This document shows positions 4,737-56,503 of a stretch of 64,000 bases of DNA, piece after piece (the stretch's first letter is position 1; the number at the start of each line of letters is the position of its first letter). The notes beneath the pieces were generated by a model. The model was not told where the DNA came from, did not search any database, and worked only from the letters and a program-made list of their open reading frames with translations. Origin of the DNA: an uncultured Nitrospirota bacterium (lineage in GTDB: Bacteria > CG2-30-53-67); NCBI GenBank assembly GCA_947259355.1, contig CAMYMF010000010.1, positions 170 through 64,169 on the forward strand, read 5' to 3'. The position numbers and the translations under genes were made by a program.

Positions 4737-5762
4737 ATGAGCGAGAAAGTTACTGCCCATCATTTGATCTTCCTTGTCATGCTTGGTTTCTTATTGCCTT
4801 ACACCTATGGAGGTTGCGTTGCGGCATTCAGCAGTGGCGACGGACATAAGGAGCGCATAGTTAGAGATACCCCTAACGATCATGAGGATGGATTCTCAGG
4901 TGGTTTCATCATTGTTGTCACGGAGGCCTCCGTTGATTCGCAAAATGCTCAAGCCCTTAACGGTCTAACCATCAGAGGCGATACGACCAGTATCGAACCT
5001 GAAGCATCAGCACTAGATCCGAATGCCGTCGACACTCGGATCGCGACGTATCGTCCCTTGGATTTCTCGTTGACTGTGGGGTATTCTTTAGGTCATATAC
5101 GACTCAGTCCGACGTTGTTCGGCGCGAGCCAGGCAGACACGATCCATCAAAGCGGGACTGTCGAGGGCCGTTGCGGAGGCGTCTTTTCGTACAGCTTGAC
5201 TCTGGACAAGGTCTCCAAGGAATTTTCTGGACACCTTACCTTCGAGGATTACTGTGACAAGCAAACGACTCTCTCCGGCGATCTCGATGTTATTGGCACC
5301 TTTGATTCCGATACTGAAGACGTCATAACAGCCACCCTTTCATTCGATAGCCTGCTCGCAGGCTCCTTCATTCTGGCAGGTGAGCTTTCAATCGATTTCT
5401 CAGAGCTTCCCATCCTCGCAGTATTCACCGTCCAGGCGACGGACGCTCTCTCCGGGCAGGTCTACCGCCATGAAGACTACAGCATGAACATCACCGAATC
5501 GATTGACGGTGTCGACATAGATCTCACGGGGACCTTCCACCACCCCGATCATGGATTCGTTGGTTTAGCCACGGCGGATCCACTTGTTATTCATGATGGA
5601 GATCACTGGCCGGCATCGGGCCAAATGGTCATTCAGGGAGCCAACAGCACGGCGGCAGTATTGACGGCCGTCGATCACTTGCAGTGTGGCATTATGGTTG
5701 ACACAACGGGTGATGGATTATTGGACTGGGACTCGGGAGTCCTGAATTGGATTGACTTGTAA
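4737..5762 (+). CDS. hypothetical lipoprotein/secreted protein
   Basis: Signal peptide MSEKVTAHHLIFLVMLGFLLPYTYGGC with a lipobox-like GGC. Acidic, Ser/Thr/Asp-rich body with no recognisable domain. Confidence 0.55.
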   Translation: MSEKVTAHHLIFLVMLGFLLPYTYGGCVAAFSSGDGHKERIVRDTPNDHEDGFSGGFIIVVTEASVDSQNAQALNGLTIRGDTTSIEPEASALDPNAVDTRIATYRPLDFSLTVGYSLGHIRLSPTLFGASQADTIHQSGTVEGRCGGVFSYSLTLDKVSKEFSGHLTFEDYCDKQTTLSGDLDVIGTFDSDTEDVITATLSFDSLLAGSFILAGELSIDFSELPILAVFTVQATDALSGQVYRHEDYSMNITESIDGVDIDLTGTFHHPDHGFVGLATADPLVIHDGDHWPASGQMVIQGANSTAAVLTAVDHLQCGIMVDTTGDGLLDWDSGVLNWIDL

Positions 5763-5987
5763 TGGCGGCCCCAACGCATTCCTTAATTCCTGTTTTCTCG
5801 TTGATATTTGCACGCGTAGGTCGACCACCCGCTCCGCGGGTCGGTCGAGGCCTCCCATAGAGGCTGCGCCTTTAACCGCGCACGCTCCGGAGGACGCGGA
5901 GAAAGGCAATCCCTGTCAAAGATTAAGTAGCTGAGTCAGAACCTCCGTCGATAAAGTGGACACAATCGCCTAACGGAGGATGTGTCC

Positions 5988-6089
5988 ATGCGCAGCAAGA
6001 GCAGAAAGCAGATCGAGACAGGCACGAGGAAGAAACATCGATACAGCAATGCGTTTAAGCTGACGTCGGTGACTGCAGGCGTCCGCTAG
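5988..6089 (+). mobile_element. possible IS3-family OrfA N-terminal remnant (33 codons)
   Basis: MRSKSRKQIETGTRKKHRYSNAFKLTSVTAGVR resembles the R-x-YS-x-x-FK-x-x-V start of IS3 OrfA proteins. It is truncated by a stop and lies in an AT-richer patch. Confidence 0.25.
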
Positions 6090-6215
6090 ATGACACCCAA
6101 ACAGTGTAGGCTTCCTTACTTACCCTTTTAACCTTTTCCGGTGTTTGACTCAGACACCGAATTCGTAGGGTGACTGACCCTGAACTTGACAAAGCAAACG
6201 ATAGGTGATATCTAG

Positions 6216-6707
6216 CAAATAGGAATCATTCCGATTATCGAAGAATATAAGAACCTTCGGGATATTGAACAGACGCTCATCTCGAGTTTACGTGATAAGG
6301 GATAGAGGCCCACCCCTAAACGACTTGAAATTATTCGACTTTTGGCACGGGATATCTCACATCCCGGCGTAAGGGATATTTTACGGAACGTCAGAAAGAT
6401 CGTTCCACGGATAAGCATGTCAACGGTATCTTACACCCTTGACATGATGCAGAGAGAAGGCTTGATATAAGGGCTTGAGTTCTACCACACGGACAAGCGT
6501 TAGGATATGAACCTATCGCATCATATCGACCTCGTCTGCACAACATGCGGGAAGATAACGGATTTTACGAGTGATTTGCCTTCATTATCAAAGGCTGTGG
6601 AAAAGGAAACAGGTATTAAGCTGTCAAGTATGCGGTTTGAATATTACGCCATCTGCAGGACTCGCGCGCGTGTGAAAAAGAAGAGGGGCCCTAAATTCTT
6701 TTGTTAG
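6216..6707 (+). pseudogene. Fur/PerR-family regulator pseudogene (three in-frame stops)
   Basis: A single frame reads ..LRDKG*RPTPKRLEIIRLLA..HPGVRDILRNVRK.VPRISMSTVSYTLDMMQREGLI*GLEF..DKR*DMNLSHHIDLVCTTCGKITDF.. with stops at 6303, 6468 and 6501. No clear start codon, and the C-terminal CxxC is lost. Confidence 0.75.
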
Positions 6708-6911
6708 CTAGTTTCCATCCGAAAATTAAAAGGGACACGAATTAGTTTCCAATTTGGAAACGAGCAATTTTTTCGATGAGCAAGGCCGCACAAGGGTTTA
6801 CGACGAGGCGTACTCATTGTACGTCGAGGAAGTAAGCCCGCGGAGAACGCAGCGCATCGGGTGAAACACTATTATCCACAACAGCACTGTGCCTAAGTTC
6901 AGACAACGTAA

Positions 6912-9119
<2,208 letters not shown>

Positions 9120-9540
9120 TGGCAGCCTAAACGACTTCGAGGGCTTCTGAATTGAAATGCAACGACGCGATGGCTCGCTGACGCTTTATATTTAGCACGG
9201 GGCGGCGGAAGGGGACACGCGCGAAAACGCGATCCCTGCGCCTGTCAGGTCATTCTTCATGGCGGGCCGTCTCTGCGGCCCGGAGGCTTCGCTGATCGAT
9301 GGGTCGTACAAGATTCGCGAATGAAAACGGGTGTTGTGACAGAAACAGGGCGGCAAAAAAGCGGTCAGCTGTGAACCTAAAGGGGACAGGCTGCTTTTCG
9401 TTTTCAGGAGGGTTGAGAATAACAAAATAGCCTGTCCCCTTTGGCGCTTCCTGCAGCTCAGAACGTTTGCCCCCCAGGCGTAGAGGGAACCGGAAAGGAA
9501 GTCGCCATATGTGCCCGCACACAGGATGGAAATCACTTGC

Positions 9541-10194
9541 ATGAAACTGCTGTCCGTCAATGTCTCCTTACCCAAAACCTATGAATACGGCGGCAAGTCC
9601 GTAACCACCGGCATCTATAAAGAACCGGTCGCGGGACGGGTCATGGTGAGAAGACTCAACCTGGAAGGCGACGGCCAGGCCGATTTGACGGTGCACGGCG
9701 GGATTGACAAGGCCGTTTACGCCTATGATACGGACAGCTATGGCTATTGGCAGCGCGAACTTGGGTGGGACGATCTGCCCTTTGGCTATTTCGGCGAAAA
9801 CCTCACCGTGGACGGCCTGCCCGACGACCGCGTCCACATCGGCGACATCTTTCAGGTCGGGGGCGCCCTACTGGAGGTGAGCCAGCCCCGGGTCCCCTGC
9901 TTCAAGCTGGAGCTAAAGATGGAGAAGCCGGGCTTTTCCCGCCGGTTTCTGGCCAGCGGTCGCCTTGGATTCTATCTCCGAGTGTTAGAAGAAGGGGATG
10001 TCGGCGCAGGAGACGTCATCGAGCGTGTGAAGACCAACCCGGGGCAGGTGTCGGTGCGTGAAATAGCCCGCCTGCTCTATTTCGACCGTGACAATCTCGA
10101 CAAGATCCGCCAGGTGCTGCGTCTCCGCGCCTTGGCGCAGGCATGGCGTAACCCCTTCGAGAAACTGCTGGGCAAACCGGAAGGAAATTCGTAG
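9541..10194 (+). CDS. MOSC domain protein (YiiM-like)
   Basis: MKLLSVNVSLPK..GIYKEPV..LEGDGQADLTVHGGIDKAVYAY..LEVSQPRVPCFKL pattern. Start moved to the ATG at 9541. Confidence 0.85.
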   Translation: MKLLSVNVSLPKTYEYGGKSVTTGIYKEPVAGRVMVRRLNLEGDGQADLTVHGGIDKAVYAYDTDSYGYWQRELGWDDLPFGYFGENLTVDGLPDDRVHIGDIFQVGGALLEVSQPRVPCFKLELKMEKPGFSRRFLASGRLGFYLRVLEEGDVGAGDVIERVKTNPGQVSVREIARLLYFDRDNLDKIRQVLRLRALAQAWRNPFEKLLGKPEGNS

Positions 10195-10571
10195 AGGTCC
10201 GGCACCTGTGAGGCTCGTTGGCAAAAAGGAAACAGGCTGCCTGGCAAATGCCATGACATAGCTTACCTTGCCGCTAAAGAGGGTTTGTGCTTAACGCACG
10301 GCAGACTCCGCGAACGTATCCAATATTGCCGAGACGACACTGCAATCCTCTTTGATCCCGGGGGAGGAAAGATCTCGGCCACTCAATTCCGGAGGATTCT
10401 CTCGACGCATGAGGGACTCTCGTTGAGATAGGCATGACCGAAAAGTAGACAGGAGCCGGTAGGTGCGGAGCGTCCCAGGGCAAGAAGCCCTGTGGTTCAC
10501 GAAACGCCTGTTGCTGCGACCTTATTCTCTCCGCGCCCATACCCGCGCTAAGCCTTCGCGGAGAAAGAGCT

Positions 10572-11141
10572 ATGAGCGAGCCGGGACAGACGAAGAAAAG
10601 TGAGCTGAAGGTCTTCATCGCTTCTCGTGAATCCAAATGTGATGACTGTGGTGAGGAATTGGGCCGTCATGCCTGGATCACCCTGCAACAGGAGAAGGGA
10701 GCGGTCTGCCTGACGTGCGCGGACCTTGACCATCTCGTCTATCTTCCGTCGGGCGACGCCGCGCTGACACGACGTGCCAGGAAGAACTCAAGGCTCTCCG
10801 CTCGGCATCGGCCTCACATTCATGCTCTGCCTGTTCAATGGCCTCGTTCTCAACCAGTAGTCCCTGCCGCTCGTAGCGCCTGCGGGCCCGGCTGCCCTTC
10901 GGAGCGCGAGACGATCATCGCGGAGCATGCCTGCCGGAAATACAGTGGCCGCGTCGGCCGAAGCGCTGCCGCCAAGGACCTTGCAGAAAAAGCGGTGCAA
11001 CTCGCAGTCCTTGCGCATATTCGTCATGTGGAGACCCGTTATGATGAGTTTCTCATCAAAAAATGCGATCGACATACTGCACGTGCGCGCGTCAGCGAAG
11101 AAGTGTTTCAAATAGAGGACCCGTGGAGAAAGAAAGCCTGA
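10572..11141 (+). CDS. DUF2293-family protein, central ~30 codons apparently inverted
   Basis: The N-terminal (..CLTCADLDHLVYLPSGDAALTRRARKNSRLSA) and C-terminal (..PGCPSERETIIAEHACRKYSGRVGRSAAAKDL..IRHVETRYDEFL) blocks fit the family. The middle motif RRRYERQGLLVENEAIEQAEHECEADA is only readable on the reverse complement of 10803-10893. Confidence 0.75.
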   Translation: MSEPGQTKKSELKVFIASRESKCDDCGEELGRHAWITLQQEKGAVCLTCADLDHLVYLPSGDAALTRRARKNSRLSARHRPHIHALPVQWPRSQPVVPAARSACGPGCPSERETIIAEHACRKYSGRVGRSAAAKDLAEKAVQLAVLAHIRHVETRYDEFLIKKCDRHTARARVSEEVFQIEDPWRKKA

Positions 11142-11660
11142 TAGAAGCTCCAGGGGCTCTCGCGAGAGTCGGAATCCTCCCGGGGGCTGTCGAGGTTTGG
11201 GCCCGCAATGACAATGCATGCAGTCCGTACAATTTCGATGAAAGAACAACCCGCGCCAACTACCACAAAAACCTCATGGCGCGGTTATCAGCGGCCTTTG
11301 ACATCGATTCAAGCAGGCGCGAGAAGCAGCTGAGCCTCGGCATGAGAATCGCTTCTTTCCCTGGAGCAATTGGGTTGGCGGCCAGTCTGTTCTTTCTGTT
11401 CTTTCTCTTCTTTCAATCCCGGGGAAGGTTTTCGATAAACGCTGAAGCAGCGCTGGCCAATGGCACTCGTCTGGCGCCGTGGATGCTGTCCGTTCCCCCC
11501 ATAAATGACAAATCCAATGAGGAGCTATAGAATATCGAGCAGCGAAAGAAGGATTGTCAAATCTGTCTTAAATCGTTGCCAAGCTCGTAGTCGAAAGCTC
11601 AGCGTGCCAACAAGAAAGCAGAAAAGCCAAAGTCGCTAAAAGTCACAAAGGAGACAACCC

Positions 11661-11993
11661 ATGAGATACTTAGTCGTAGGCTCCGGAGGACCAGGATTCG
11701 CATCATACGAGGAAACCTTGGAAGTACTAAACAGTATTATTCTGCCCAGTTTTAATGCATTAATCCAGCTCGAAAGAAAGAAAAAGATCCGTGCCGGAGG
11801 ACTCCCAGTCGGTGATCGAGCGTTTGTGTTTATTGTCGAGGCCAGATCCAACGACGAAGTTGACCAAATGCTGAGAAAACTTCCGATGTGGGGTACGCTG
11901 GATTGGGACGTGACACCGTTGCAGACATTCAGCGCGAGGGCGAAGCAGGAGCGGCAGGCCGTAAGAGACATCAAAAAGATGATGAAGAAATAG
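11661..11993 (+). CDS. small hypothetical protein (muconolactone-isomerase-like fold suspected)
   Basis: 110-aa ORF with an AAAGGAG SD. The ..LRKLPMWGTLDWDVTPLQTF.. pattern is reminiscent of small alpha+beta isomerase-like families; function uncertain. Confidence 0.55.
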   Translation: MRYLVVGSGGPGFASYEETLEVLNSIILPSFNALIQLERKKKIRAGGLPVGDRAFVFIVEARSNDEVDQMLRKLPMWGTLDWDVTPLQTFSARAKQERQAVRDIKKMMKK

Positions 11994-12074
11994 GCCCCGC
12001 ACGTTTGCACCCGACGATAAAGGCCTTCGCTCCTTTCGCGAAACGCAACAACGATGGGGGGGCAGCAAAGGAAA

Positions 12075-12533
12075 ATGCACCATATTTACCGAGGATTCGT
12101 TTGTCTATCGTTCATCGCTGGTTGCAACTCTCAGCCGGAACCAACGTCTGCGGTACGCGGACAGCCACGGTGGACGAATGATCAAGTTATCCAGCGGATC
12201 ATGAACGGCGAACTGGGTGACAACCTGGCCGATCGTGCAAGGAAGACGGACAACTTGTGGATGCGCGAGATAGACCAGAATGTCCTTCCCATGCAGATCT
12301 TCTACTATGCCGACTATCGCGCCGGCATCTCTGTGCTGGTCGAAAACGACAAACCAATTCTCCTTTGTGCCGGATATGGCAGCGGCCCCGTGTCAGGCCT
12401 GACAGTCGTCTCCAGGGGTGGCAAGACGGTTTTGACATATACCTACACCATCGGAAGCGGGGTCCAGCACCTGTATGAAGCGGAGTATGTTCTCGGGTCG
12501 GGAGTCGGCTTTTCAGAGAAGATGACAAACTAA
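12075..12533 (+). CDS. hypothetical lipoprotein
   Basis: Signal MHHIYRGFVCLSFIAGC with lipobox IAGC. No recognisable domain. Start could also be 12054. Confidence 0.6.
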   Translation: MHHIYRGFVCLSFIAGCNSQPEPTSAVRGQPRWTNDQVIQRIMNGELGDNLADRARKTDNLWMREIDQNVLPMQIFYYADYRAGISVLVENDKPILLCAGYGSGPVSGLTVVSRGGKTVLTYTYTIGSGVQHLYEAEYVLGSGVGFSEKMTN

Positions 12534-12601
12534 CCCTCGGACATCCCACTTGGCGGGGATGCATCAAAAATACGCATGCCTTGCCACGGGAGGCTGCATC
12601 A

Positions 12602-12772
12602 ATGACACCTCAAAGGCAACCCACCCGCTCCAATGGGATATGTGACATCCGAAGCATGGGTTGTCTGCTGGTATTTGTGGGCATCGTGGGAGCCATGTTT
12701 GGCATGGCTGGTATGCTTGGAATCATCAAGAATCTTGAACTTAAATTCCTCGGCATCGAGCTGAACAATTAA
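12602..12772 (+). CDS. small single-TM membrane protein (56 aa)
   Basis: GGGAGG at 12588-12593 lies 8 nt before the ATG. One hydrophobic helix (CLLVFVGIVGAMFGMAGMLGII). Sits just upstream of the MtrA-like gene. Confidence 0.4.
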   Translation: MTPQRQPTRSNGICDIRSMGCLLVFVGIVGAMFGMAGMLGIIKNLELKFLGIELNN

Positions 12773-12823
12773 CGTACATGATTGTTGACCGTTGAGTTCA
12801 TGTTGGCTTAAGTTGAAAAAACG

Positions 12824-13519
12824 ATGCGAAAAGTGGATCCCCATCCAGATTATCCCCCGGAAGACGGCCAGTATCTGAGAGGCAATGATTTCTCTCCGGT
12901 TGCCGTGGCCATCATCTTGAATTGTGATGCAGACAAAATCCCGCCCGAGCTTGAAAACCTTGTACGGGCTGGGATCGAGACGGGGGCCGCCCTATCAGGA
13001 ACCGTACAAACCGAGAATATTGGATTCGAGAAAATGCTCTGTAACATCGTCTCCAATTCCAATATCCGTTATCTCATCGTAGGCGGCCCCGAATCGCCGG
13101 GCCATTTGACGGGTGAGGCTTTAAAAGCTTTGATTCATAATGGGGTGGACGAGAAGAAGCGTATCGTAGAAACCGACGCGCCCCATCCTTTTCTATTCAA
13201 CGTCTCTATGGAGATGATTGAACGCTTCCGGAAACAGCTCTCGTTGATCGACCTTCAGTTTCAGGGAGACCCCGAATTGATTCGAAAGGCCGTCTGGTGC
13301 TGTTATCAGGAAAGTCCTGTCGCGTTTCGTGGTTATTCGCTGTACGATCCAGGCGCCTACCCAGAGAGCCCTCTCAGCGGCAGGCTGACATGGCGTGTCA
13401 CCCAGCCATGGACTGAAGTGTTGGATGAAAAAGAGCGTGAGGCAAAAGAGAAAGCACTGGCGCTCATAGAGCGCTTAAAGGCAAGAGCCAAGAAAGGCAA
13501 AGAGAACCTGCAAGAGTAG
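12824..13519 (+). CDS. MtrA-like (tetrahydromethanopterin S-methyltransferase subunit A family) corrinoid-binding protein
   Basis: YPPEDGQYLRGNDFSPVAVAIIL..TENIGFEKMLCNIVSNSNIRYLIVGGPESPGHLTGEALKALIHNGVD matches the MtrA core as I recall it, including the His in the GH-TG motif. It has no C-terminal TM helix and carries a Lys/Glu-rich tail instead. Confidence 0.7.
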   Translation: MRKVDPHPDYPPEDGQYLRGNDFSPVAVAIILNCDADKIPPELENLVRAGIETGAALSGTVQTENIGFEKMLCNIVSNSNIRYLIVGGPESPGHLTGEALKALIHNGVDEKKRIVETDAPHPFLFNVSMEMIERFRKQLSLIDLQFQGDPELIRKAVWCCYQESPVAFRGYSLYDPGAYPESPLSGRLTWRVTQPWTEVLDEKEREAKEKALALIERLKARAKKGKENLQE

Positions 13520-13632
13520 CGGACAAGGGAGTCCTCAGGCGATACAGATTGACTGACCGCCGAGACTATCCATGTGCAGAATGTGCAACCGTGATCCGAT
13601 CAAAACTTGATGCTCACGAGGAGGGATTGAAC

Positions 13633-13962
13633 ATGAGCAAGGCCGACATCTATTGGAGCGGTGCATCGGGGAAAAAATACGGCTACTGGATTCATGCCAT
13701 AGATACAGCGTTCCGGAAAATAGCCGGCAATAGCATTTTTGCGAAGCAGACAGAAAGCGGAGACTGGGTACCAATTTATATCGGCCAGACCCGGAATTTC
13801 GACCTGGGGCTGACGGATGATCGGGAAAAGATGGCCTGCGCCCGCCAGAATGGTGCCACCCATGTCCACACCCATTTCAGCTCCCCCGATGAACCCATCC
13901 GAAGAGCGGAGGTGGAGGACCTGGTGGCGCAATGGAAACCGGTCTGCAATTCGCGCCCATGA
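13633..13962 (+). CDS. hypothetical protein, GIY-YIG-like
   Basis: GAGGAGGG SD before the ATG at 13633. ..KYGYWI..IYIGQTRNF.. and a C-terminal ..E.DLV..WKPVCN pattern resemble small GIY-YIG superfamily proteins. Confidence 0.5.
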   Translation: MSKADIYWSGASGKKYGYWIHAIDTAFRKIAGNSIFAKQTESGDWVPIYIGQTRNFDLGLTDDREKMACARQNGATHVHTHFSSPDEPIRRAEVEDLVAQWKPVCNSRP

Positions 13963-14032
13963 ATGACAGACCGTCTACCGGCGACGCATCCCAGCAAATG
14001 ATTAAGGAGCCCTGTCTCACGAGACTGCGACT

Positions 14033-14338
14033 ATGGCGAAGCGATCGAAATCGTCACCGGACAAACGTTGGTCGGGGAAGGTAACCCGAGAGAGCAATGC
14101 ACTGGATCTGGAGGAGGGGGTCTTCACGTGGTCGGATCCGAAGAGGATTGCGCGGTCCCTCAAGCGCTCAGCGGACAGCAGCACCCGTCGCAAAGCCCCC
14201 CCATTCCGCTCCGCCATGTCGATGCTCGTCTTCTATATGAACCGAGCAGGCAGGAATCTGAACGAGGACCAGCTGCGAATTCTGGAGCAGGCCAAGGAAG
14301 AGCTCCGCGGACTCTATGGGAAGCGCCGCCATCCATGA
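14033..14338 (+). CDS. DUF3175-family protein
   Basis: ..SNALDLEEGVFTWSDPKRIARSLKRSADSSTRRKAPPFRSAMSMLVFYMNRAGRNL.. matches the family pattern as I recall it. Confidence 0.8.
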   Translation: MAKRSKSSPDKRWSGKVTRESNALDLEEGVFTWSDPKRIARSLKRSADSSTRRKAPPFRSAMSMLVFYMNRAGRNLNEDQLRILEQAKEELRGLYGKRRHP

Positions 14339-49623: not shown

Positions 49624-49906
49624 GATCGCTCACCTCCTTCGCGCTTCTGTTTGAATAGACGAACGCTCGGAAGAAATCCTGCAGACAGTTCCGCCCGAAG
49701 TTCGCATGAGACTTCTCCGCCCCCGCTCCTCTCCCCGCGCCTCAGGGGGGGCCGCCCTTTCGTAAAAGCTTGACAAACGCCGTTCACGGCGTAGGATAAG
49801 GGCAACTGGTCTACGCCCGTGCAGACCTGTGAACTCTGGGGCCTGGCCAAGAGGTTTTCGGGCCCTCATCTCGAGGATGTCCCTCGGCATTAACAGGGTT
49901 GAATCT

Positions 49907-51238
49907 ATGGCGTTATCTCAGCTGGAACACCTCCTTCGTCAGATCGGCAACACCGACCTCATGGAGCTGACACAGTTCAATCCCCAGGGAAGGGTGCGGG
50001 TTTTCGCGAAGCTCGAGATGAACAATCTCACGGGGTCCGTCAAGGATCGGCCCGCCCGAAACATGATCGAAGAGGCGGAAAAAACGGGGAGGTTGGAGCC
50101 GGGAAAGACTGTCCTGGAGTCGACGTCGGGAAACACAGGGATCGCCTTGGCGGCCATCGGGCGGGCCAAGGGTTACCCGGTGAAACTGGTGATACCGGAG
50201 ACGGTCAGTCGTGAGAGAAAGGAGCTGCTAGCCGGTTTTGGTGCGGAGATCGTCCTGAGCAGCGGCATGGAAGGTGCCGACGGCGCATACAATCTGGCCA
50301 ACACCCTCTACGAGGAAGATCCGGACAGGTTCTTCAAGGCGGATCAGTATGCCAACCCCGACAACCCCGCGGCCCACTGCAATACCACGGGCGAGGAAAT
50401 CTGGCGCCAGACGGAGGGACAGGTGACGCACTTTGTGGCGGCCACGGGAACAAGCGGTACTCTCATGGGAACCACCCGTCGGTTGAAAACGCATAATGGG
50501 CAAATCAAGGTCTACGGGGCCCAGCCCGCAGAGGAAATGCACGGCGTGGAAGGCTTGAAGAATTATTCGGCCGAAATGGTGCCGGCCATCTATGAACCAC
50601 AACTGCTGGACGGTGTGATCCGGATCGGCACGCAGGATGCCTATGACATGATGGTGCGCCTGGCCAGGGAGGCCCGCGTCTTCGCCGGTCCCAGCGCGGG
50701 TCTCAATGTCTGTGCAGCGCTGAAGCTGGCAGCAGAGCTAGACCAGGGCCTCATCGTTACCGTGCTGCCGGACTCGGGATATCGTTATGTCAGCACGGGG
50801 CTTTTCCCGGACGATCTTTTCGATGTGCATCTGGCATCCCAACAGATGGTGGAGATCACGAAACATGCCGGCAGCGGATACCCCCATGAGGTCTGCGGCC
50901 TTCTGGCCGGAACCATCGAGCCGCACCGCAAAGTGGTCACACGGGTCTTTCCGTGCAAGAACATCAACCGGCAGCGTGCACGGGATCGGTTCGAAATCGA
51001 CCCCCGCCAGTATCTGGAAATCACCGAGGCCTTGACGGAAGACGAAACCATCCTCGGCATCTACCACTCCCACCCCGATCATCCCTCCAGACCGTCACCG
51101 ACGGATCTCTCCCGGGCCTTCCCGGTCTACTCCTATCTGATTGCCGCAACCATCGACGCCACGGTCAGTTCGACCCGCTCGTGGACATTGCATGAAGAAA
51201 AGGGTGTCTTCGAGGAAGAATTCATCAAGGTGACGTGA
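49907..51238 (+). CDS. cysteine synthase (CysM/CysK-type PLP enzyme) fused to a C-terminal JAMM/MPN (Mec-like) metalloprotease domain
   Basis: N-terminal ..LTGSVKDRPARNMI..ESTSGNTGIALA..ATGTSGTLMG... C-terminal ..HEVCGLLAG..YHSHPDHPSRPSPTDL (JAMM motif). Start 49907 or 49877. Confidence 0.85.
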   Translation: MALSQLEHLLRQIGNTDLMELTQFNPQGRVRVFAKLEMNNLTGSVKDRPARNMIEEAEKTGRLEPGKTVLESTSGNTGIALAAIGRAKGYPVKLVIPETVSRERKELLAGFGAEIVLSSGMEGADGAYNLANTLYEEDPDRFFKADQYANPDNPAAHCNTTGEEIWRQTEGQVTHFVAATGTSGTLMGTTRRLKTHNGQIKVYGAQPAEEMHGVEGLKNYSAEMVPAIYEPQLLDGVIRIGTQDAYDMMVRLAREARVFAGPSAGLNVCAALKLAAELDQGLIVTVLPDSGYRYVSTGLFPDDLFDVHLASQQMVEITKHAGSGYPHEVCGLLAGTIEPHRKVVTRVFPCKNINRQRARDRFEIDPRQYLEITEALTEDETILGIYHSHPDHPSRPSPTDLSRAFPVYSYLIAATIDATVSSTRSWTLHEEKGVFEEEFIKVT

Positions 51239-51255
51239 GGCAGAGCCAAGCTCGC

Positions 51256-52635
51256 TCAGCCTCGGGAGCGCCGGGCCGGCTCCATGCCGAGTTTCCTTCG
51301 CAGGGTCAGGCGGTTGATTCCGAGGACCCGGGCCGCTTCTGATAGATTGTCCCGGGTCAAGGAGAGCACATACTCCAGGAGGTGTTTGTCGACCTCCTCG
51401 TGGATCTTCCTGTGAATATTACGCTCCTTGGTCTCGACAAATTCCTTCAAAATGGGAACCAAAGCGGAGGCAAGTGTGTCGGACAAGCCCGCTTGCTGTT
51501 TCGTGGCACCATGGGTGCCGAGATCTTTCAATTCATGGGATGTCAAATAGGCCACTTTACTCAGGGCCATCGCGGACCGGATCGTGTTTTCCAGCTCTCG
51601 AATATTTCCGGGCCAGTCATAGGCCAGCATTTGATCCCTGAACGTGCGGGTCATCCCCTGAATTCGGGTCCGGGTGGTGTGCCGGTATCGGTGAATGAAA
51701 AAATGAATCAACGGCAGGATATCCTTCTTGCGCTTGCGCAGAGGCGGGATGTGGATGGTGGCCACACTCAATCGGTGGAACAGATCCTCCCGAAATTTGC
51801 CCCGCCGGACCATGGCGGGCAGATCTCTGTTGGTCGCCGAAATGACCCGCACGTTGACCTGCGCTTCCTGGGTGCTCCCCAAAGGATAAAACGTCTGGGT
51901 TTGGATGAAGCGAAGGAGTTTTCCCTGGATGGAAAAGGGCAGTTCGCCGATCTCATCAAAAAAGACACATCCGCCGTCCGCGATCTTGAGGAACCCCTCC
52001 TTGGCCGAAAGGGCCCCGGTAAACGCGCCTTTCTCAAAACCGAACAGTTCCGATTCCAGCAGGGTGTCGGGAATGGCCGCGCAGTTGATCACCACAAAGG
52101 GTTTCCCGAAGCGCTGCGACAGCTGCGCGATGGACTCGGCAATGAGCTCCTTTCCTGTTCCTGTCTCACCCGTAATCAGCACCGGGACTTCCACCTGTGC
52201 CAGTCGGGCCAGTTTCTTGCAGACATCCATGATCAGCGCTGATCGCCCGACAATGGCGCACGTGGGATCGATGGTGTAGCTCCCTTTGCCCGTTTCAATG
52301 CGCGCGCTCAACTCCTCGCGGATCTCCTGCAGTTCCTGAATCAAACCGGCAACAACCTCTTTTCTCAGAGGCCGGTGCACAACTTCGTAGGCTCCCGATG
52401 TGGTCGCATCGATGACGGACCCCGTCCTCTTTTCCTGGGTGACGGCAACGACAAAGGTCCGTGCGGCAAGCTCTCCGAGGAGATCGGTGCCCAGGGTGTC
52501 GATATCGAGAAAGACGACACGCTCCGCCCCGGCGGCCCTCCCCGTGAGCACACGAACGCCTTGGGGCAACACAGAGGTCAACTCTCTTTTCAGGGCGGGG
52601 TCTTTCGTCATCAGACGGATTGTTTCGCGCTTCAT
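51256..52635 (-). CDS. sigma-54-dependent transcriptional activator (degenerate receiver, AAA+, Fis-type HTH)
   Basis: ITGETGTGKE Walker A, ESELFGFEKGAFTGA (GAFTGA) and C-terminal NLSEAARVLGINRLTLRRKL. The N-terminal receiver-like domain lacks the acidic DD pair. Confidence 0.9.
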   Translation of the reverse strand: MKRETIRLMTKDPALKRELTSVLPQGVRVLTGRAAGAERVVFLDIDTLGTDLLGELAARTFVVAVTQEKRTGSVIDATTSGAYEVVHRPLRKEVVAGLIQELQEIREELSARIETGKGSYTIDPTCAIVGRSALIMDVCKKLARLAQVEVPVLITGETGTGKELIAESIAQLSQRFGKPFVVINCAAIPDTLLESELFGFEKGAFTGALSAKEGFLKIADGGCVFFDEIGELPFSIQGKLLRFIQTQTFYPLGSTQEAQVNVRVISATNRDLPAMVRRGKFREDLFHRLSVATIHIPPLRKRKKDILPLIHFFIHRYRHTTRTRIQGMTRTFRDQMLAYDWPGNIRELENTIRSAMALSKVAYLTSHELKDLGTHGATKQQAGLSDTLASALVPILKEFVETKERNIHRKIHEEVDKHLLEYVLSLTRDNLSEAARVLGINRLTLRRKLGMEPARRSRG

Positions 52636-52723
52636 CGTATATTTCTTATACAGCATGGTTAATAAATAATCAACATTTTTCGCCCGGGACGGATGAAGAA
52701 CCTCTTTTGGCAAGGCTCGCAGG

Positions 52724-52739
52724 TGGCACGGGAGTTGCT
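52724..52739 (+). promoter_or_regulatory. sigma-54 (-24/-12) promoter
   Basis: TGGCACGGGAGTTGCT matches TGGCACG-N4-TTGCW at every specified position. It lies 112 nt upstream of the 52851 ATG and is divergent from the activator gene. Confidence 0.75.
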
Positions 52740-52850
52740 ATTCATGAGCGAAGGAAAAAGGGGAACTGGATCATCCCACCCATCCCGGCCCGGGTTGAAC
52801 CGGCCGGAGCATCGGTGTTGAAATGTTCATAGGGGGAGAAAGGAAAAACG

Positions 52851-53948
52851 ATGAATGTCAATCTGGAAGAACTCAAGCGGGTGGGAATCATTGCGCAGCG
52901 GCAGAAGGACTATTTCCTGTTCCGGCTGCGCACGGTGGCCGGTGAATTGACGGCGGAGCAATTGAGTGCAGCCGCGGCCATCTCGAGGGAATATGCAGAC
53001 GGCAAAGTGCATCTGAGCACACGTCAGGGGGTAGAGATCCACAACATACATGTGAGCAGACTGCGGGAAGTGAGCGACAGGCTCGAAAAAGAAGGGATCA
53101 CCCTCGGCGCCTGCGGCCCGCGGGGCAGGGGCATCGTAGCCTGCCCGGGACGGGCAACCTGTGCATTCGGCTTGGTCGACACCAAGGAACTCGCGGGCGA
53201 GCTGGACCGCGAGTATTTCCGTAAAGACGCTCCCCATAAATTCAAGATCGGTGTCTCGGGCTGCCCCAACAACTGCTCCAAACCAATCGAGAATGACATC
53301 GGGGTGATGGGAGGGGTCTTGCCGGGCTGGCAGAAGGACCAATGCATCCATTGCCGCCTCTGTCTGCATATCTGCCCGACGGAGGCATTGGAGAATCGGG
53401 AAGACCACTATATTCTGGACCTGGAAAAGTGCATCCTGTGCGGTCTCTGCATTGTCAACTGCCCGGCCAATGCCTGGGAGCCGAGACAGCGCGGCTATAC
53501 ACTCTTCCTGGGCGGCACCATGGGTAAGAAGCCCCGGCTCGCCAGCCGGGCAAAAATCTTGATTGAATCGAAAGAAGAACTGCTGCGCTTCATCAAGGCC
53601 GCCTTTGACTTCTATGTTCACCATGGGCGGAAGAAGGAGCGCTTCGGCCACACGCTCGACAGAGTCGGCCTTGAGCGGGCCCTGGAACAGATACTGGCCA
53701 AAGAGACTCAGACCCTGGACCTCCGGGGGGTCAGCTGTCCCATGAATTTTGTCCGGGCAAAACTCGCAATCGAGGATATTGATGAGGGGCAGCGGATCGA
53801 GTTCTTTCTCGATGAAGGGGAGCCGCTGGTCAATGTGACAAGGAGCTTGAAAAACGAAGGCCATCGGGTCCTCCATGTGGCGCCGGAGGAAAGATATTTC
53901 AGGGTGCTTGTCGAAAAGCGGACCCACAAGTTCGCCCGGGCGGTTTAA
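52851..53948 (+). CDS. sulfite/nitrite-reductase-like sirohaem-[4Fe-4S] protein with ferredoxin insert, fused to a C-terminal TusA/SirA-like domain
   Basis: ACPGRATC and GCPNNC (the Cx5C..Cx3C sirohaem-cluster signature), CIHCRLCLHICP and CILCGLCIVNCP, and a C-terminal LDLRGVSCPMNFVRAKLAIEDIDEGQRIEFFLDEGEP (TusA-type CP motif). Confidence 0.8.
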   Translation: MNVNLEELKRVGIIAQRQKDYFLFRLRTVAGELTAEQLSAAAAISREYADGKVHLSTRQGVEIHNIHVSRLREVSDRLEKEGITLGACGPRGRGIVACPGRATCAFGLVDTKELAGELDREYFRKDAPHKFKIGVSGCPNNCSKPIENDIGVMGGVLPGWQKDQCIHCRLCLHICPTEALENREDHYILDLEKCILCGLCIVNCPANAWEPRQRGYTLFLGGTMGKKPRLASRAKILIESKEELLRFIKAAFDFYVHHGRKKERFGHTLDRVGLERALEQILAKETQTLDLRGVSCPMNFVRAKLAIEDIDEGQRIEFFLDEGEPLVNVTRSLKNEGHRVLHVAPEERYFRVLVEKRTHKFARAV

Positions 53949-54070
53949 TGCAGCCTAATCACGATGGCCAAAGCTTCGTCAAACGAGCCCCGTGGAAACA
54001 GAGTCCGGCTGTGCCCTGGAAAACGCCCACCTCCTTGAGCACGTAGAAGCAAAAGTAACTGGACCTCATA

Positions 54071-54463
54071 ATGTGCAGAGTACTCGTCATTCATAACCAA
54101 GGGATGTCTTTGGACACGTTTCGATTCTTGTTCATGCAATCGGGATATCATGTTGAAACGGCGACCAGTGGAGAACAGGGGATTCAGAAGCTGGAGGCGA
54201 TACGGTTTGATCTGGTTATCACGGATGTGCGTTCGCCAGGGATCGATGGGCGTCGGATTGCCCGTCACATCAGAAATTCGGGTCGCCGGTATTTACCCAT
54301 TGTTGCGATTTCCTCGACGCCCCTGGCGCGGCAGTTTGATTTCGACCTGGTCATTTCTAATCTCTTGGACATGATCCTCCTGAGAGGATTTCTAAAAAAA
54401 ATGACTTCCAATAACTCACTCCGTGACGATCTCGGACCACCGTCGGGGTCCCCGGAATCATAA
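54071..54463 (+). CDS. single-domain response-regulator receiver protein (atypical acidic pocket)
   Basis: CheY-like fold pattern ..FDLVITDVRSPGIDG..PIVAISS.., but the N-terminus reads VLVIHNQG instead of the usual ..DD... Confidence 0.7.
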   Translation: MCRVLVIHNQGMSLDTFRFLFMQSGYHVETATSGEQGIQKLEAIRFDLVITDVRSPGIDGRRIARHIRNSGRRYLPIVAISSTPLARQFDFDLVISNLLDMILLRGFLKKMTSNNSLRDDLGPPSGSPES

Positions 54464-54559
54464 GAGTGTCTGAAACGTCGACCGCCAAGGTGCGGTGAAA
54501 ACGGCCGAGATTACAGATAGTGGGAAGGAAGTGCTCGCCTGATCGAGCCGTTTGAATGT

Positions 54560-55144
54560 TCAGTTTCCCTCGCGCACCCCTTTCTTCTTGGTTCTCTCCG
54601 GATAGATATAACTGATGGGGGGATTCTTGGCAGAGGGATTCGTCGGCGCATAGGCCACCACTTCAAACCCCGAAAGGCGAAGCTCGCCCTTCACCTTGGT
54701 CATGTAGAGCTGCACAACGGCGTCGCTCCTGCCTCTGAGCAAATAGTTGGAACTGACCAGGTCATAGTGCACGAAAGCGTTTTTCAGGGCGGCCTCATCG
54801 AGCACCTTGCTTCGCGGGACCAGCTGAATTCGCTCATAGGTCCCACTGAAGCCATAGGTCTTCTTCAGTTTCTGGTTGAGGCGACGCAGGGTGCGGGTCC
54901 CCACTTTTTGCCTGATCTTCGGTGCGAGCACCGGTTTGATCGACTCCAGCTTGTAGCTCACGAATTTTTCGATGCAGGCCTGTTCGAAGGCCTCTGCTTC
55001 CGGCACGGAACTCTTGGACACCACATCGTACTCCATCCGCCCGTCATCATAATGATGGTATCCCAGGTGGTATTTGCTGATCGAGAAGCAGCCGCTCAGC
55101 AGTAAACCGAGCAGCAGACTTGCGGCAAAGCGTCTATCAACCAT
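54560..55144 (-). CDS. hypothetical lipoprotein
   Basis: MVDRRFAASLLLGLLLSGC lipobox. No recognised domain. Confidence 0.6.
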   Translation of the reverse strand: MVDRRFAASLLLGLLLSGCFSISKYHLGYHHYDDGRMEYDVVSKSSVPEAEAFEQACIEKFVSYKLESIKPVLAPKIRQKVGTRTLRRLNQKLKKTYGFSGTYERIQLVPRSKVLDEAALKNAFVHYDLVSSNYLLRGRSDAVVQLYMTKVKGELRLSGFEVVAYAPTNPSAKNPPISYIYPERTKKKGVREGN

Positions 55145-55530: not shown

Positions 55531-55812
55531 TTATTCAGCTTTGTGGTACTTGCGAGCGTAGGCCGCTCCCGAAAGGAGCGAAACACCGAGTAGAACAAGT
55601 GTGGCAGGCTCAGGCACGGGCGCTGCCGCTTTGTCGTCCTCACTCGAATTGTCATCCCGGTAAAGCTTGTCTATTTTTGCAGTCTTGGTTTTATAGGCCT
55701 TTTCACTCTTCTTCGCGTGGGGCCGGTCCAGACCATCCTTTTTCGGATAACCATAGGCTGCACCCGATCCCACAAGGAAAAGCACAACCATCAGTACGAT
55801 CCATCGTTTCAT
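55531..55812 (-). CDS. small PEP-CTERM sorting-domain protein (93 aa)
   Basis: Signal peptide, Lys-rich middle, and C-terminal VPEPATLVLLGVSLLSGAAYARK. GGAGAGGAGG SD. Confidence 0.8.
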   Translation of the reverse strand: MKRWIVLMVVLFLVGSGAAYGYPKKDGLDRPHAKKSEKAYKTKTAKIDKLYRDDNSSEDDKAAAPVPEPATLVLLGVSLLSGAAYARKYHKAE

Positions 55813-56503
55813 AGCGTCTAACCTCCTCTCCACGACTTCATGATTCGCGACGCTCTGCTGGAACTTTCCCGTAACAGAGAGGCAACGGCGCTCTTTCTCT
55901 TATCCGTCCGACGAATTCGGATCGACAAAACTTCACCAAATGCTTCCAATCACAAACCCGTGAAAAAGCAAGATGGATGCCAAACTTACAACCTATTGTT
56001 TTTACGCAAATTTCTGCCCCAGCAACACAGAACTGCCCGACGATGGGCAAGGAAGTGTAAAGATTGCCGACAGTTGGCCCTCTACCTCTGGGCAGAGGGT
56101 AGAAACTCTATCAAATACAATATGTTAGGGTTGTAAGCCTTCTCGACAGGGCCTAAAAAATCAGATATAAGACGTTTTTGATCTAAAAAACCAGAATTAT
56201 GAACCTAAGGACCCAAAATACCCTGTTAATAACTCTCAAAGTGCTCATTCTGGCATAGAAGAGGGTCTGTCTTTCCCGGCCGGGGGCTCAAAGCTCGCCG
56301 CGCGTTGCGGCCATGGCATAGGGGCACCTTGAGGGTGAGGCCACCGGACGCAACGCTGGCCGGCCAGATTATGAATCGCATATTCCTTCGAATCCTGTTA
56401 TCCTGTCGCAGCGTTCCCTGGCCGCTTGCCCTTTGACAGCGGCTGAGAGGCGCCCACCCGGGGGCCCCCTCTCGAAACCGATGCGTCATCGATCCTCAAT
56501 GCC

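Follow-up and report, generated by a model that had tools for sequence, protein, structure and literature searches.

Gene organization of the locus

The DNA analysed here (the window) is a stretch of 64,000 nt from contig CAMYMF010000010.1 (assembly GCA_947259355.1) of an uncultured Nitrospirota bacterium. At 51256-53948 it carries a gene for a sulfite reductase fused to a TusA sulfur-carrier domain and, divergent from it, a gene for a σ54-dependent activator; a −24/−12 promoter and a palindrome lie between them. A first-pass annotation, made from the sequence alone, had pointed out the promoter, the activator and the fusion. It is fairly probable, in our judgement, that the locus is a self-contained sulfur-assimilation switch, i.e. 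a σ54-regulated assimilatory sulfite reductase with a built-in sulfur-relay domain, and in anaerobic bacteria the most likely role of the fusion enzyme is to supply reduced sulfur for the synthesis of cysteine. The features are as follows:

52851..53948, plus strand: sulfite reductase–TusA fusion gene, an open reading frame (ORF) of 365 aa with the Pfam domains NIR_SIR_ferr, NIR_SIR, Fer4 and TusA
52893..53090, plus strand: NIR_SIR_ferr half-domain, aa 15-80 (Pfam E 5.9e-19), which holds R25 and R58
53115..53702, plus strand: NIR_SIR sirohaem-[4Fe-4S] domain, aa 89-284 (Pfam E 5.4e-33), which holds R93, C98-x5-C104, K130, K132 and C138-x3-C142
53334..53477, plus strand: inserted ferredoxin module with two [4Fe-4S] motifs, aa 162-209 (several Fer4 family matches)
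53712..53918, plus strand: TusA domain, aa 288-356 (Pfam TusA, PF01206, E 1.2e-17), with the Cys296 codon at 53736-53738
52724..52739, plus strand: σ54 −24/−12 promoter TGGCACGGGAGTTGCT, TGGCAC-N5-TTGCT (motif scan; conserved upstream of orthologues)
52637..52651, no strand assigned: palindrome GTATATTTCTTATAC, a probable enhancer (upstream activating sequence) 87 nt before the promoter, found once in the window
51256..52635, minus strand: σ54 enhancer-binding activator of 459 aa (Sigma54_activat, 3.2e-65; AAA_lid_14; HTH_8), divergent from the fusion gene
52321..52635, minus strand: pseudo-receiver N-terminal domain of the activator, aa 1-105 (AF2 model, Foldseek)

The reductase and its catalytic residues

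The domain composition proposed in the first-pass annotation was borne out by the profile scan, which found NIR_SIR_ferr, NIR_SIR, Fer4 and TusA; the main matches of the fusion protein exceeded the Pfam gathering cut-offs (64 bits against 28.6 for the TusA domain). In the translation, the sirohaem-cluster cysteines are C98-x5-C104 (ACPGRATC) and C138-x3-C142 (GCPNNC), the ferredoxin insert contains two CxxCxxCxxxCP motifs (C165/168/171/175 and C194/197/200/204; aa 165-176 and 194-205), and the TusA signature Cys-Pro is C296-P297, located at the start of helix 1 of the TusA fold as in TusA/SirA carriers. Among solved structures, the reductase half of Fsr (7np8, E 1.2e-46) is the closest relative. 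In the alignment to this structure, C98/C104 and C138/C142 match Fsr C428/C434 and C468/C472, and the four sulfite-binding residues of MjFsr (R355, R423, K460 and K462) have their counterparts in R25, R93, K130 and K132. R58 corresponds to MjFsr R388, the arginine which sets the assimilatory-type apart from the dissimilatory enzymes (PMC10229431 for all these roles). The four sulfite-binding residues and the four sirohaem-cluster cysteines are invariant in 19 family members, R58 and all eight ferredoxin cysteines are invariant in the family alignments, and C296-P297 is invariant in the fused forms as well as in the free-standing partner TusA.

Judged by its sequence, the reductase belongs to group IIId of the Dsr-like proteins (Dsr-LP) as classified in PMC3448663; the definition of this group includes a ferredoxin insertion that carries both peripheral and additional [4Fe-4S] clusters. 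The paired NIR_SIR domains, the CX5C...CX3C motif, the four Arg/Lys residues and the two-cluster ferredoxin insert are all present. Three other identities were rejected: AsrC (TIGR02912; 145.3 bits against an equivalog cut-off of 324.1), DsrA (85 bits against 393) and DsrB (101 bits against 341, with a CX5C...CX3C motif and not the DsrB-type CXnCCX3C). No asrA- or asrB-like neighbours were found in the window or in the related loci. Sulfite reduction at an assimilatory-type site, with electrons supplied via the built-in ferredoxin, is well supported by homology, and by analogy to Fsr the enzyme is probably homodimeric.

The C-terminal half of Fsr and the other group IIId Dsr-LP of methanogens, as well as the bacterial AsrC-type group III Dsr-LP (7NP8/7NPA; PMC3448663; PMC10229431), have in common with the window protein the NIR_SIR_ferr and NIR_SIR domains with a two-cluster ferredoxin insert, the CX5C...CX3C motif, the four sulfite-binding Arg/Lys residues and the assimilatory-type arginine. 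Unlike Fsr, the window protein lacks the F420H2-oxidase half and, unlike AsrC, it has no AsrA/AsrB partners nearby; its C-terminal TusA domain occurs in none of the described Fsr, AsrC or Dsr-LP proteins.

The same residues bear on the substrate. Sirohaem reductases of this fold include nitrite reductases, and group II Fsr is reported to be a nitrite reductase (PMC9295563), so that nitrite or another anion might be reduced here and the TusA domain might be only structural or regulatory. We regard this as very improbable: the altered residues marking group II Fsr are not present, all the sulfite-type Arg/Lys residues are kept, and the conserved neighbours (see below) are all sulfur genes, with no nitrogen gene among them.

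Conservation and origin of the fusion

A search of 5.8 billion proteins returned 868 homologues of the fusion protein. The best 120 of these, at 59-100% identity and headed by the window's own protein, all possess the TusA domain; most are from metagenome genomes of Nitrospirota and Thermodesulfovibrionia. Since more than 100 independent protein clusters with 56-87% identity carry the fusion, it is not the product of a frameshift or of an assembly join between two genes, and sequence comparison confirmed it as conserved and not artefactual. The remark in the first-pass annotation that the architecture is not known to be a described one holds in part: full-text searches, with subscription journals outside their coverage, found no paper describing a sulfite reductase–TusA fusion or pair, but the architecture is not unique to the host genome and the databases name it automatically as 'sulfurtransferase TusA family protein'. 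The nearest published analogue is the fusion of NirA/Sir to rhodanese in Halobacteria (PMC11237513), described in silico only, in which a sirohaem nitrite/sulfite reductase is likewise joined to a sulfur-carrier domain. There, however, the reductase is a four-domain NirA in contrast to the small Dsr-LP type found here, the carrier is rhodanese instead of TusA, and the hosts are archaeal.

A scan of species-representative genomes recovered 29 loci. In four of them the two parts are separate genes: the reductase ends at about 287 aa and a TusA gene of 75-76 aa overlaps its stop codon. The free TusA of the split pairs exhibits 58-59% identity to the fused domain and has the signature motifs in common with it. 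One of the four split loci belongs to a cultured organism, Pelotomaculum propionicicum C1. In another locus (L029), from a long-read assembly, the frame breaks.

In an unrooted tree of 29 fused and 16 split forms (45 rows), built from the reductase columns only, the two kinds fall on either side of a single branch with SH-aLRT 99. The forms with a long linker make up a single clade nested among those with a short linker, to which the window protein belongs. The simplest reading of this unrooted tree is one fusion event, and the occurrence of the split pairs suggests that the partnership of reductase and TusA is older than the fusion.

Within the host phylum, the fusion gene was found in 2 of the 14 genomes searched, both from the window's genus, and outside this genus the closest relatives of the window protein are from Nitrospirota metagenome-assembled genomes. 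This distribution suggests that the module was gained by lateral transfer.

Promoter, palindrome and leader

The first-pass annotation had described the −24/−12 element facing the 52851 gene as a perfect match, and the scan agrees: TGGCACGGGAGTTGCT is the sole zero-mismatch match to TGGCAC-N5-TTGCW in the window, where allowing one mismatch gives 4 matches against about 2.2 expected. The reductase–TusA ORF begins 127 nt downstream of it, and no σ70-like promoter was found in 51100-54700. The related loci (385,655 bp, both strands) contained 22 matches to the strict pattern TGGCA[CT]-N5-TTGC[AT]; 21 of these precede the fusion gene on the coding strand, at a distance of 55-222 nt. All 23 fused loci with upstream DNA thus keep the element (in 21 of them as a strict match, in 2 with one mismatch), and the 4 split loci lack it. 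The GG-N10-GC spacing of the −24/−12 element, the AAA+ activator with GAFTGA and the presence of rpoN in the host genome together make up a σ54 system.

The palindrome GTATA-N5-TATAC occurs once in the window, against 0 expected. In 12 of the 24 promoter regions scanned, (T)GTATA-N5-TATAC(A) is located 86-89 nt upstream of the −24 element, and this spacing is unchanged even where the activator gene is more distant. Among the 40 σ54-like motifs of the host genome, only the promoter of the fusion gene has the palindrome. A wider regulon was rejected, as the pair of palindrome and promoter occurs once in the 3.1-Mb assembly. Because the palindrome adjoins the activator start codon, autoregulation of the activator is plausible.

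An Rfam scan gave no riboswitch or leader RNA near the locus, the window's leader folds no better than shuffled sequences (z = 0.88), and a first alignment of all leaders showed no consensus structure. In the long-linker clade, the leader between the σ54 promoter and the start codon contains a 16-18-bp hairpin with a C-rich loop (L006:7880-7950, L012, L014, L015, L017, L019, L020, L021:7892-7958, L023, L031 and L011), with compensatory changes at 8 of 16 pairs and z of about −5 against shuffles. It is present neither in the window nor in the same-genus locus L004. The hairpin may mask the ribosome-binding site or stabilise the transcript.

The divergent activator

GAFTGA and the Walker A sequence GETGTGKE are visible in the activator translation. 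Orthologues with 53-85% identity are divergent from and adjacent to the reductase gene in 18 loci, which strengthens the proposed pairing of activator and promoter, and lie 4-6 kb upstream in 3 more. Comparison of the orthologues placed the start at ATG 52635 and not at TTG 52713. The TTG start, which was chosen by the ORF finder, would put the palindrome within the activator coding region; with the ATG start, the palindrome and the start codon are too close together for a normal ribosome-binding site to fit between them.

The Pfam Response_reg match of the activator N-terminus is not significant (E 0.04-0.17). The AF2 model of aa 1-105 (pLDDT 84) is a five-stranded alpha/beta domain without helix 2, the top Foldseek matches of which are receiver (REC) domains including those of NtrC1, NtrC4 and NtrX (TM about 0.7). 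The acceptor-position D44 and T66 are invariant, R88 stands in for the conserved lysine, and among the orthologues the acidic positions of strand 1 are variable (TKD, TSN, SRS, TTQ). A degenerate receiver had been noticed in the first-pass annotation; without the conserved acidic pair and with Arg88 for Lys, the modelled domain looks non-phosphorylatable. The NtrC-family activators NtrC1, NtrC4 and NtrX have in common with this protein the REC-AAA+-HTH_8 layout, GAFTGA, a divergently oriented gene and an upstream palindromic site. They differ in that their receivers possess the acidic pair, the conserved lysine and helix 2 (absent from the model here), whereas at our locus there is no kinase gene nearby and the target is a sulfur-assimilation gene. 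Our guess is that the activator senses a metabolite reflecting sulfur status.

Gene neighbourhoods and sulfur assimilation

Beyond the activator lies a further sulfur gene:

49829..51238, plus strand: CysM-type cysteine synthase fused to a JAB/Mec domain (PALP and Prok-JAB; cysM/cysKM models), convergent with the activator gene

The same CysM-JAB fusion is found beyond the activator in the same-genus locus L004, and this enzyme is likely to consume reduced sulfur downstream of the reductase. Locus L019 has cysM next to a JAB-like stretch, and L026 has a separate JAB gene after thiS-thiF. A second σ54 promoter before cysM-JAB was rejected, none being present within one mismatch.

At least 14 fused loci have a cysK or cysM gene on the downstream side of the fusion gene, at distances ranging from immediate adjacency to about 5 kb. 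In the fused locus L005, the fusion gene is followed by genes for a sulfate/thiosulfate-binding protein (sbp), cysT, cysW, cysA and a cysteine synthase (cysK). The split pairs of two uncultured bacteria head sulfate-assimilation operons, with the order reductase-TusA-cysC-cysH-sulfate ABC transporter-sat-cysK in L025 and reductase-TusA-sulfate symporter-cysC-cysH-thiS-thiF-JAB-cysD-cysN in L026. The Pelotomaculum propionicicum pair (L027) stands among genes of cysteine and methionine synthesis: thiF is directly upstream of reductase-TusA, and cysK and metXW/metY are nearby. Neighbours of this kind speak for a biosynthetic role, and in particular for routes in which the sulfur is protein-bound. 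The operon of L025 contains a second TusA fusion (13178-14191, plus strand), a CysA-like sulfate ABC transporter ATPase with a C-terminal TusA domain. Genes for universal stress proteins (Usp) are located between the reductase–TusA gene and the cysK or sulfate transporter genes in L005 (6131-6574 and 9739-10194) and L017 (9130-9534). In L008 and L009, a TPP enzyme is encoded between the activator and the reductase. A link to organosulfonates through Xsc, the sulfite-releasing sulfoacetaldehyde acetyltransferase, was rejected, as this enzyme is an acetolactate synthase (NCBIfam NF006187, 715 bits, over the cut-off).

TusA might also work in the opposite direction and deliver the substrate, so that a thiosulfonate or persulfide on Cys296, derived e.g. 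from imported thiosulfate, is reduced instead of, or besides, free sulfite. TusA/DsrE proteins are known thiosulfonate carriers (PMC4175335), YeeD/TusA partners thiosulfate uptake, L005 has the sulfate/thiosulfate-type binding protein and CysTWA behind the same promoter, and L025 has the second TusA, fused to CysA. All four residues binding free sulfite are nevertheless invariant, and the split operons hold the full route from sulfate to sulfite, which yields free sulfite. Delivery of the substrate by TusA appears unlikely to us.

Sulfur metabolism of the host

The genome carrying the window (3.1 Mb, 89.7% complete) encodes Sat, two copies of AprB, DsrAB and DsrC, the genuine dsrAB being located on a different contig from the window. 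At this completeness, no match to the CysH/CysD family was found and tblastn did not find CysC. With no PAPS-reductase-family gene and no CysC found, sulfite would come from the dissimilatory route or from outside.

A dissimilatory Sat/Apr/Dsr set without CysH would also suit a sulfite-detoxifying enzyme like the Fsr of methanococci, which would remove sulfite leaked from the cell's own Apr/Dsr or coming from outside, with the activator sensing sulfite stress. The nearest solved relative is indeed such a detoxifying Fsr, the gene is monocistronic in the window, and the operons of L005 and L017 include the universal stress protein genes. On the other hand, the relatives embed the gene with cysK/cysM, sulfate transporters, cysC, cysH, sat and metXW, and detoxification leaves the conserved sulfur-carrier partner unexplained. 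We consider it improbable as the function of the enzyme.

Proposed mechanism

According to the assimilatory interpretation which we favour, the dedicated activator with its non-phosphorylatable-looking receiver would bind the GTATA-N5-TATAC palindrome and switch on the −24/−12 promoter of a single gene. The encoded small sirohaem enzyme, similar to the Fsr C-terminal half and AsrC (group III Dsr-LP type), would reduce sulfite, receiving the electrons via the two-cluster ferredoxin insert that it carries itself; the TusA domain, covalently joined to it, would be its obligate sulfur-relay partner. Most likely, Cys296 either receives the reduced sulfur in persulfide form or captures sulfide where it leaves the active site. 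TusA would then pass the sulfur to cysteine synthesis via the neighbouring CysM-JAB and a ThiS/ThiF carrier system from another part of the genome, which has a ThiS-ThiF-TusA cluster on contig C33. We infer the role of TusA, including the direction and chemistry of the transfer at its cysteine, from the ancient pairing with the reductase and from the invariant cysteine.

The direct hand-off of sulfur to the carrier, which the first-pass annotation had suggested from the fusion, was also approached by complex prediction. Two reductase domains with TusA scored 0.45 against 0.20 for the best control; at scores of 0.60 or under, the mark was reached by only 7 of 80 solved complexes and by both of the 2 mismatched pairs that passed. 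The partner had a pLDDT of 84 or more, and the runs had at least 88% of the contacts in common. The model thus lends weak support to a contact between reductase and TusA.

Several points weigh against the proposed mechanism. The complex prediction is weak and comes without a reported interface. The fusion gene is alone in its operon within the window, and cysM-JAB lies beyond the activator and not behind the σ54 promoter. The host has Sat, AprB, DsrAB and DsrC but no CysH/CysD match, and CysC was not found; with the dissimilatory pathway present, the cell should frequently have sulfide to spare, and an assimilatory reductase would seem partly redundant except in non-sulfate-respiring conditions. 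Finally, Fsr-type active sites are buried, the sirohaem of Fsr lying behind a channel (PMC10229431). By analogy, this speaks against an attack in the manner of DsrC, with a protein cysteine reaching the intermediate bound to the sirohaem; the product would therefore more likely be captured at the exit of the channel.

The DsrAB-DsrC system and the TusA-DsrEFH-DsrC relay of sulfur oxidisers likewise combine a sirohaem sulfite reductase with a small cysteine-bearing sulfur carrier, and TusA is a known member of the relay serving Dsr. TusA is, however, unrelated to DsrC, and here the carrier is covalently fused; moreover, the motif is the assimilatory CX5C...CX3C and not the DsrB-type CXnCCX3C, and the context is biosynthetic rather than respiratory. 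A bolder and rather doubtful version of the mechanism would make the fused TusA the assimilatory counterpart of DsrC: it would take a persulfide from the reductase with no free sulfide involved and feed a ThiS/ThiF (CysO-type) thiocarboxylate route and CysM-JAB, and the locus would be a new σ54 sulfur regulon, the pseudo-receiver of which senses a sulfur metabolite directly.

Assimilatory sulfite reduction is usually pictured as the release of free sulfide, which is then captured by cysteine synthase. The long-standing pairing of reductase and carrier, made permanent by fusion in Nitrospirota-like bacteria, suggests a different route, and reduced sulfur in many anaerobes may be channelled on proteins from the reductase onward. 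This possible protein-bound hand-off of assimilated sulfur and the σ54 sulfur switch are the main interest of the locus. It offers a clean, testable case of σ54-controlled sulfur assimilation, with a one-gene regulon and a defined putative binding site, and experiments are feasible because the cultured Pelotomaculum propionicicum carries the split version.

Other observations

A stand-alone receiver gene (54071-54463, plus strand) follows the fusion gene at a distance of 122 nt, and the intervening DNA contains no terminator-like site. This receiver gene was rejected as a conserved partner, as no homologue is present in any related locus including the same-genus L004, and it is probably outside the conserved module. 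Farther downstream, a σ54-like element TGGCATCCATCTTGCT is located at 55967-55982 (minus strand), about 134 nt upstream of a gene for a small PEP-CTERM protein (55531-55833, minus strand); an identical element is present in L004 at 11771 (minus strand).

Elsewhere in the host genome, three TusA genes and three σ54-like promoter motifs are clustered on contig C54 (about 4900-13900, minus strand), one of the motifs, at 9395, being just upstream of the TusA gene at 9071-9277. Other sulfur-trafficking genes of the host may also be σ54-controlled.

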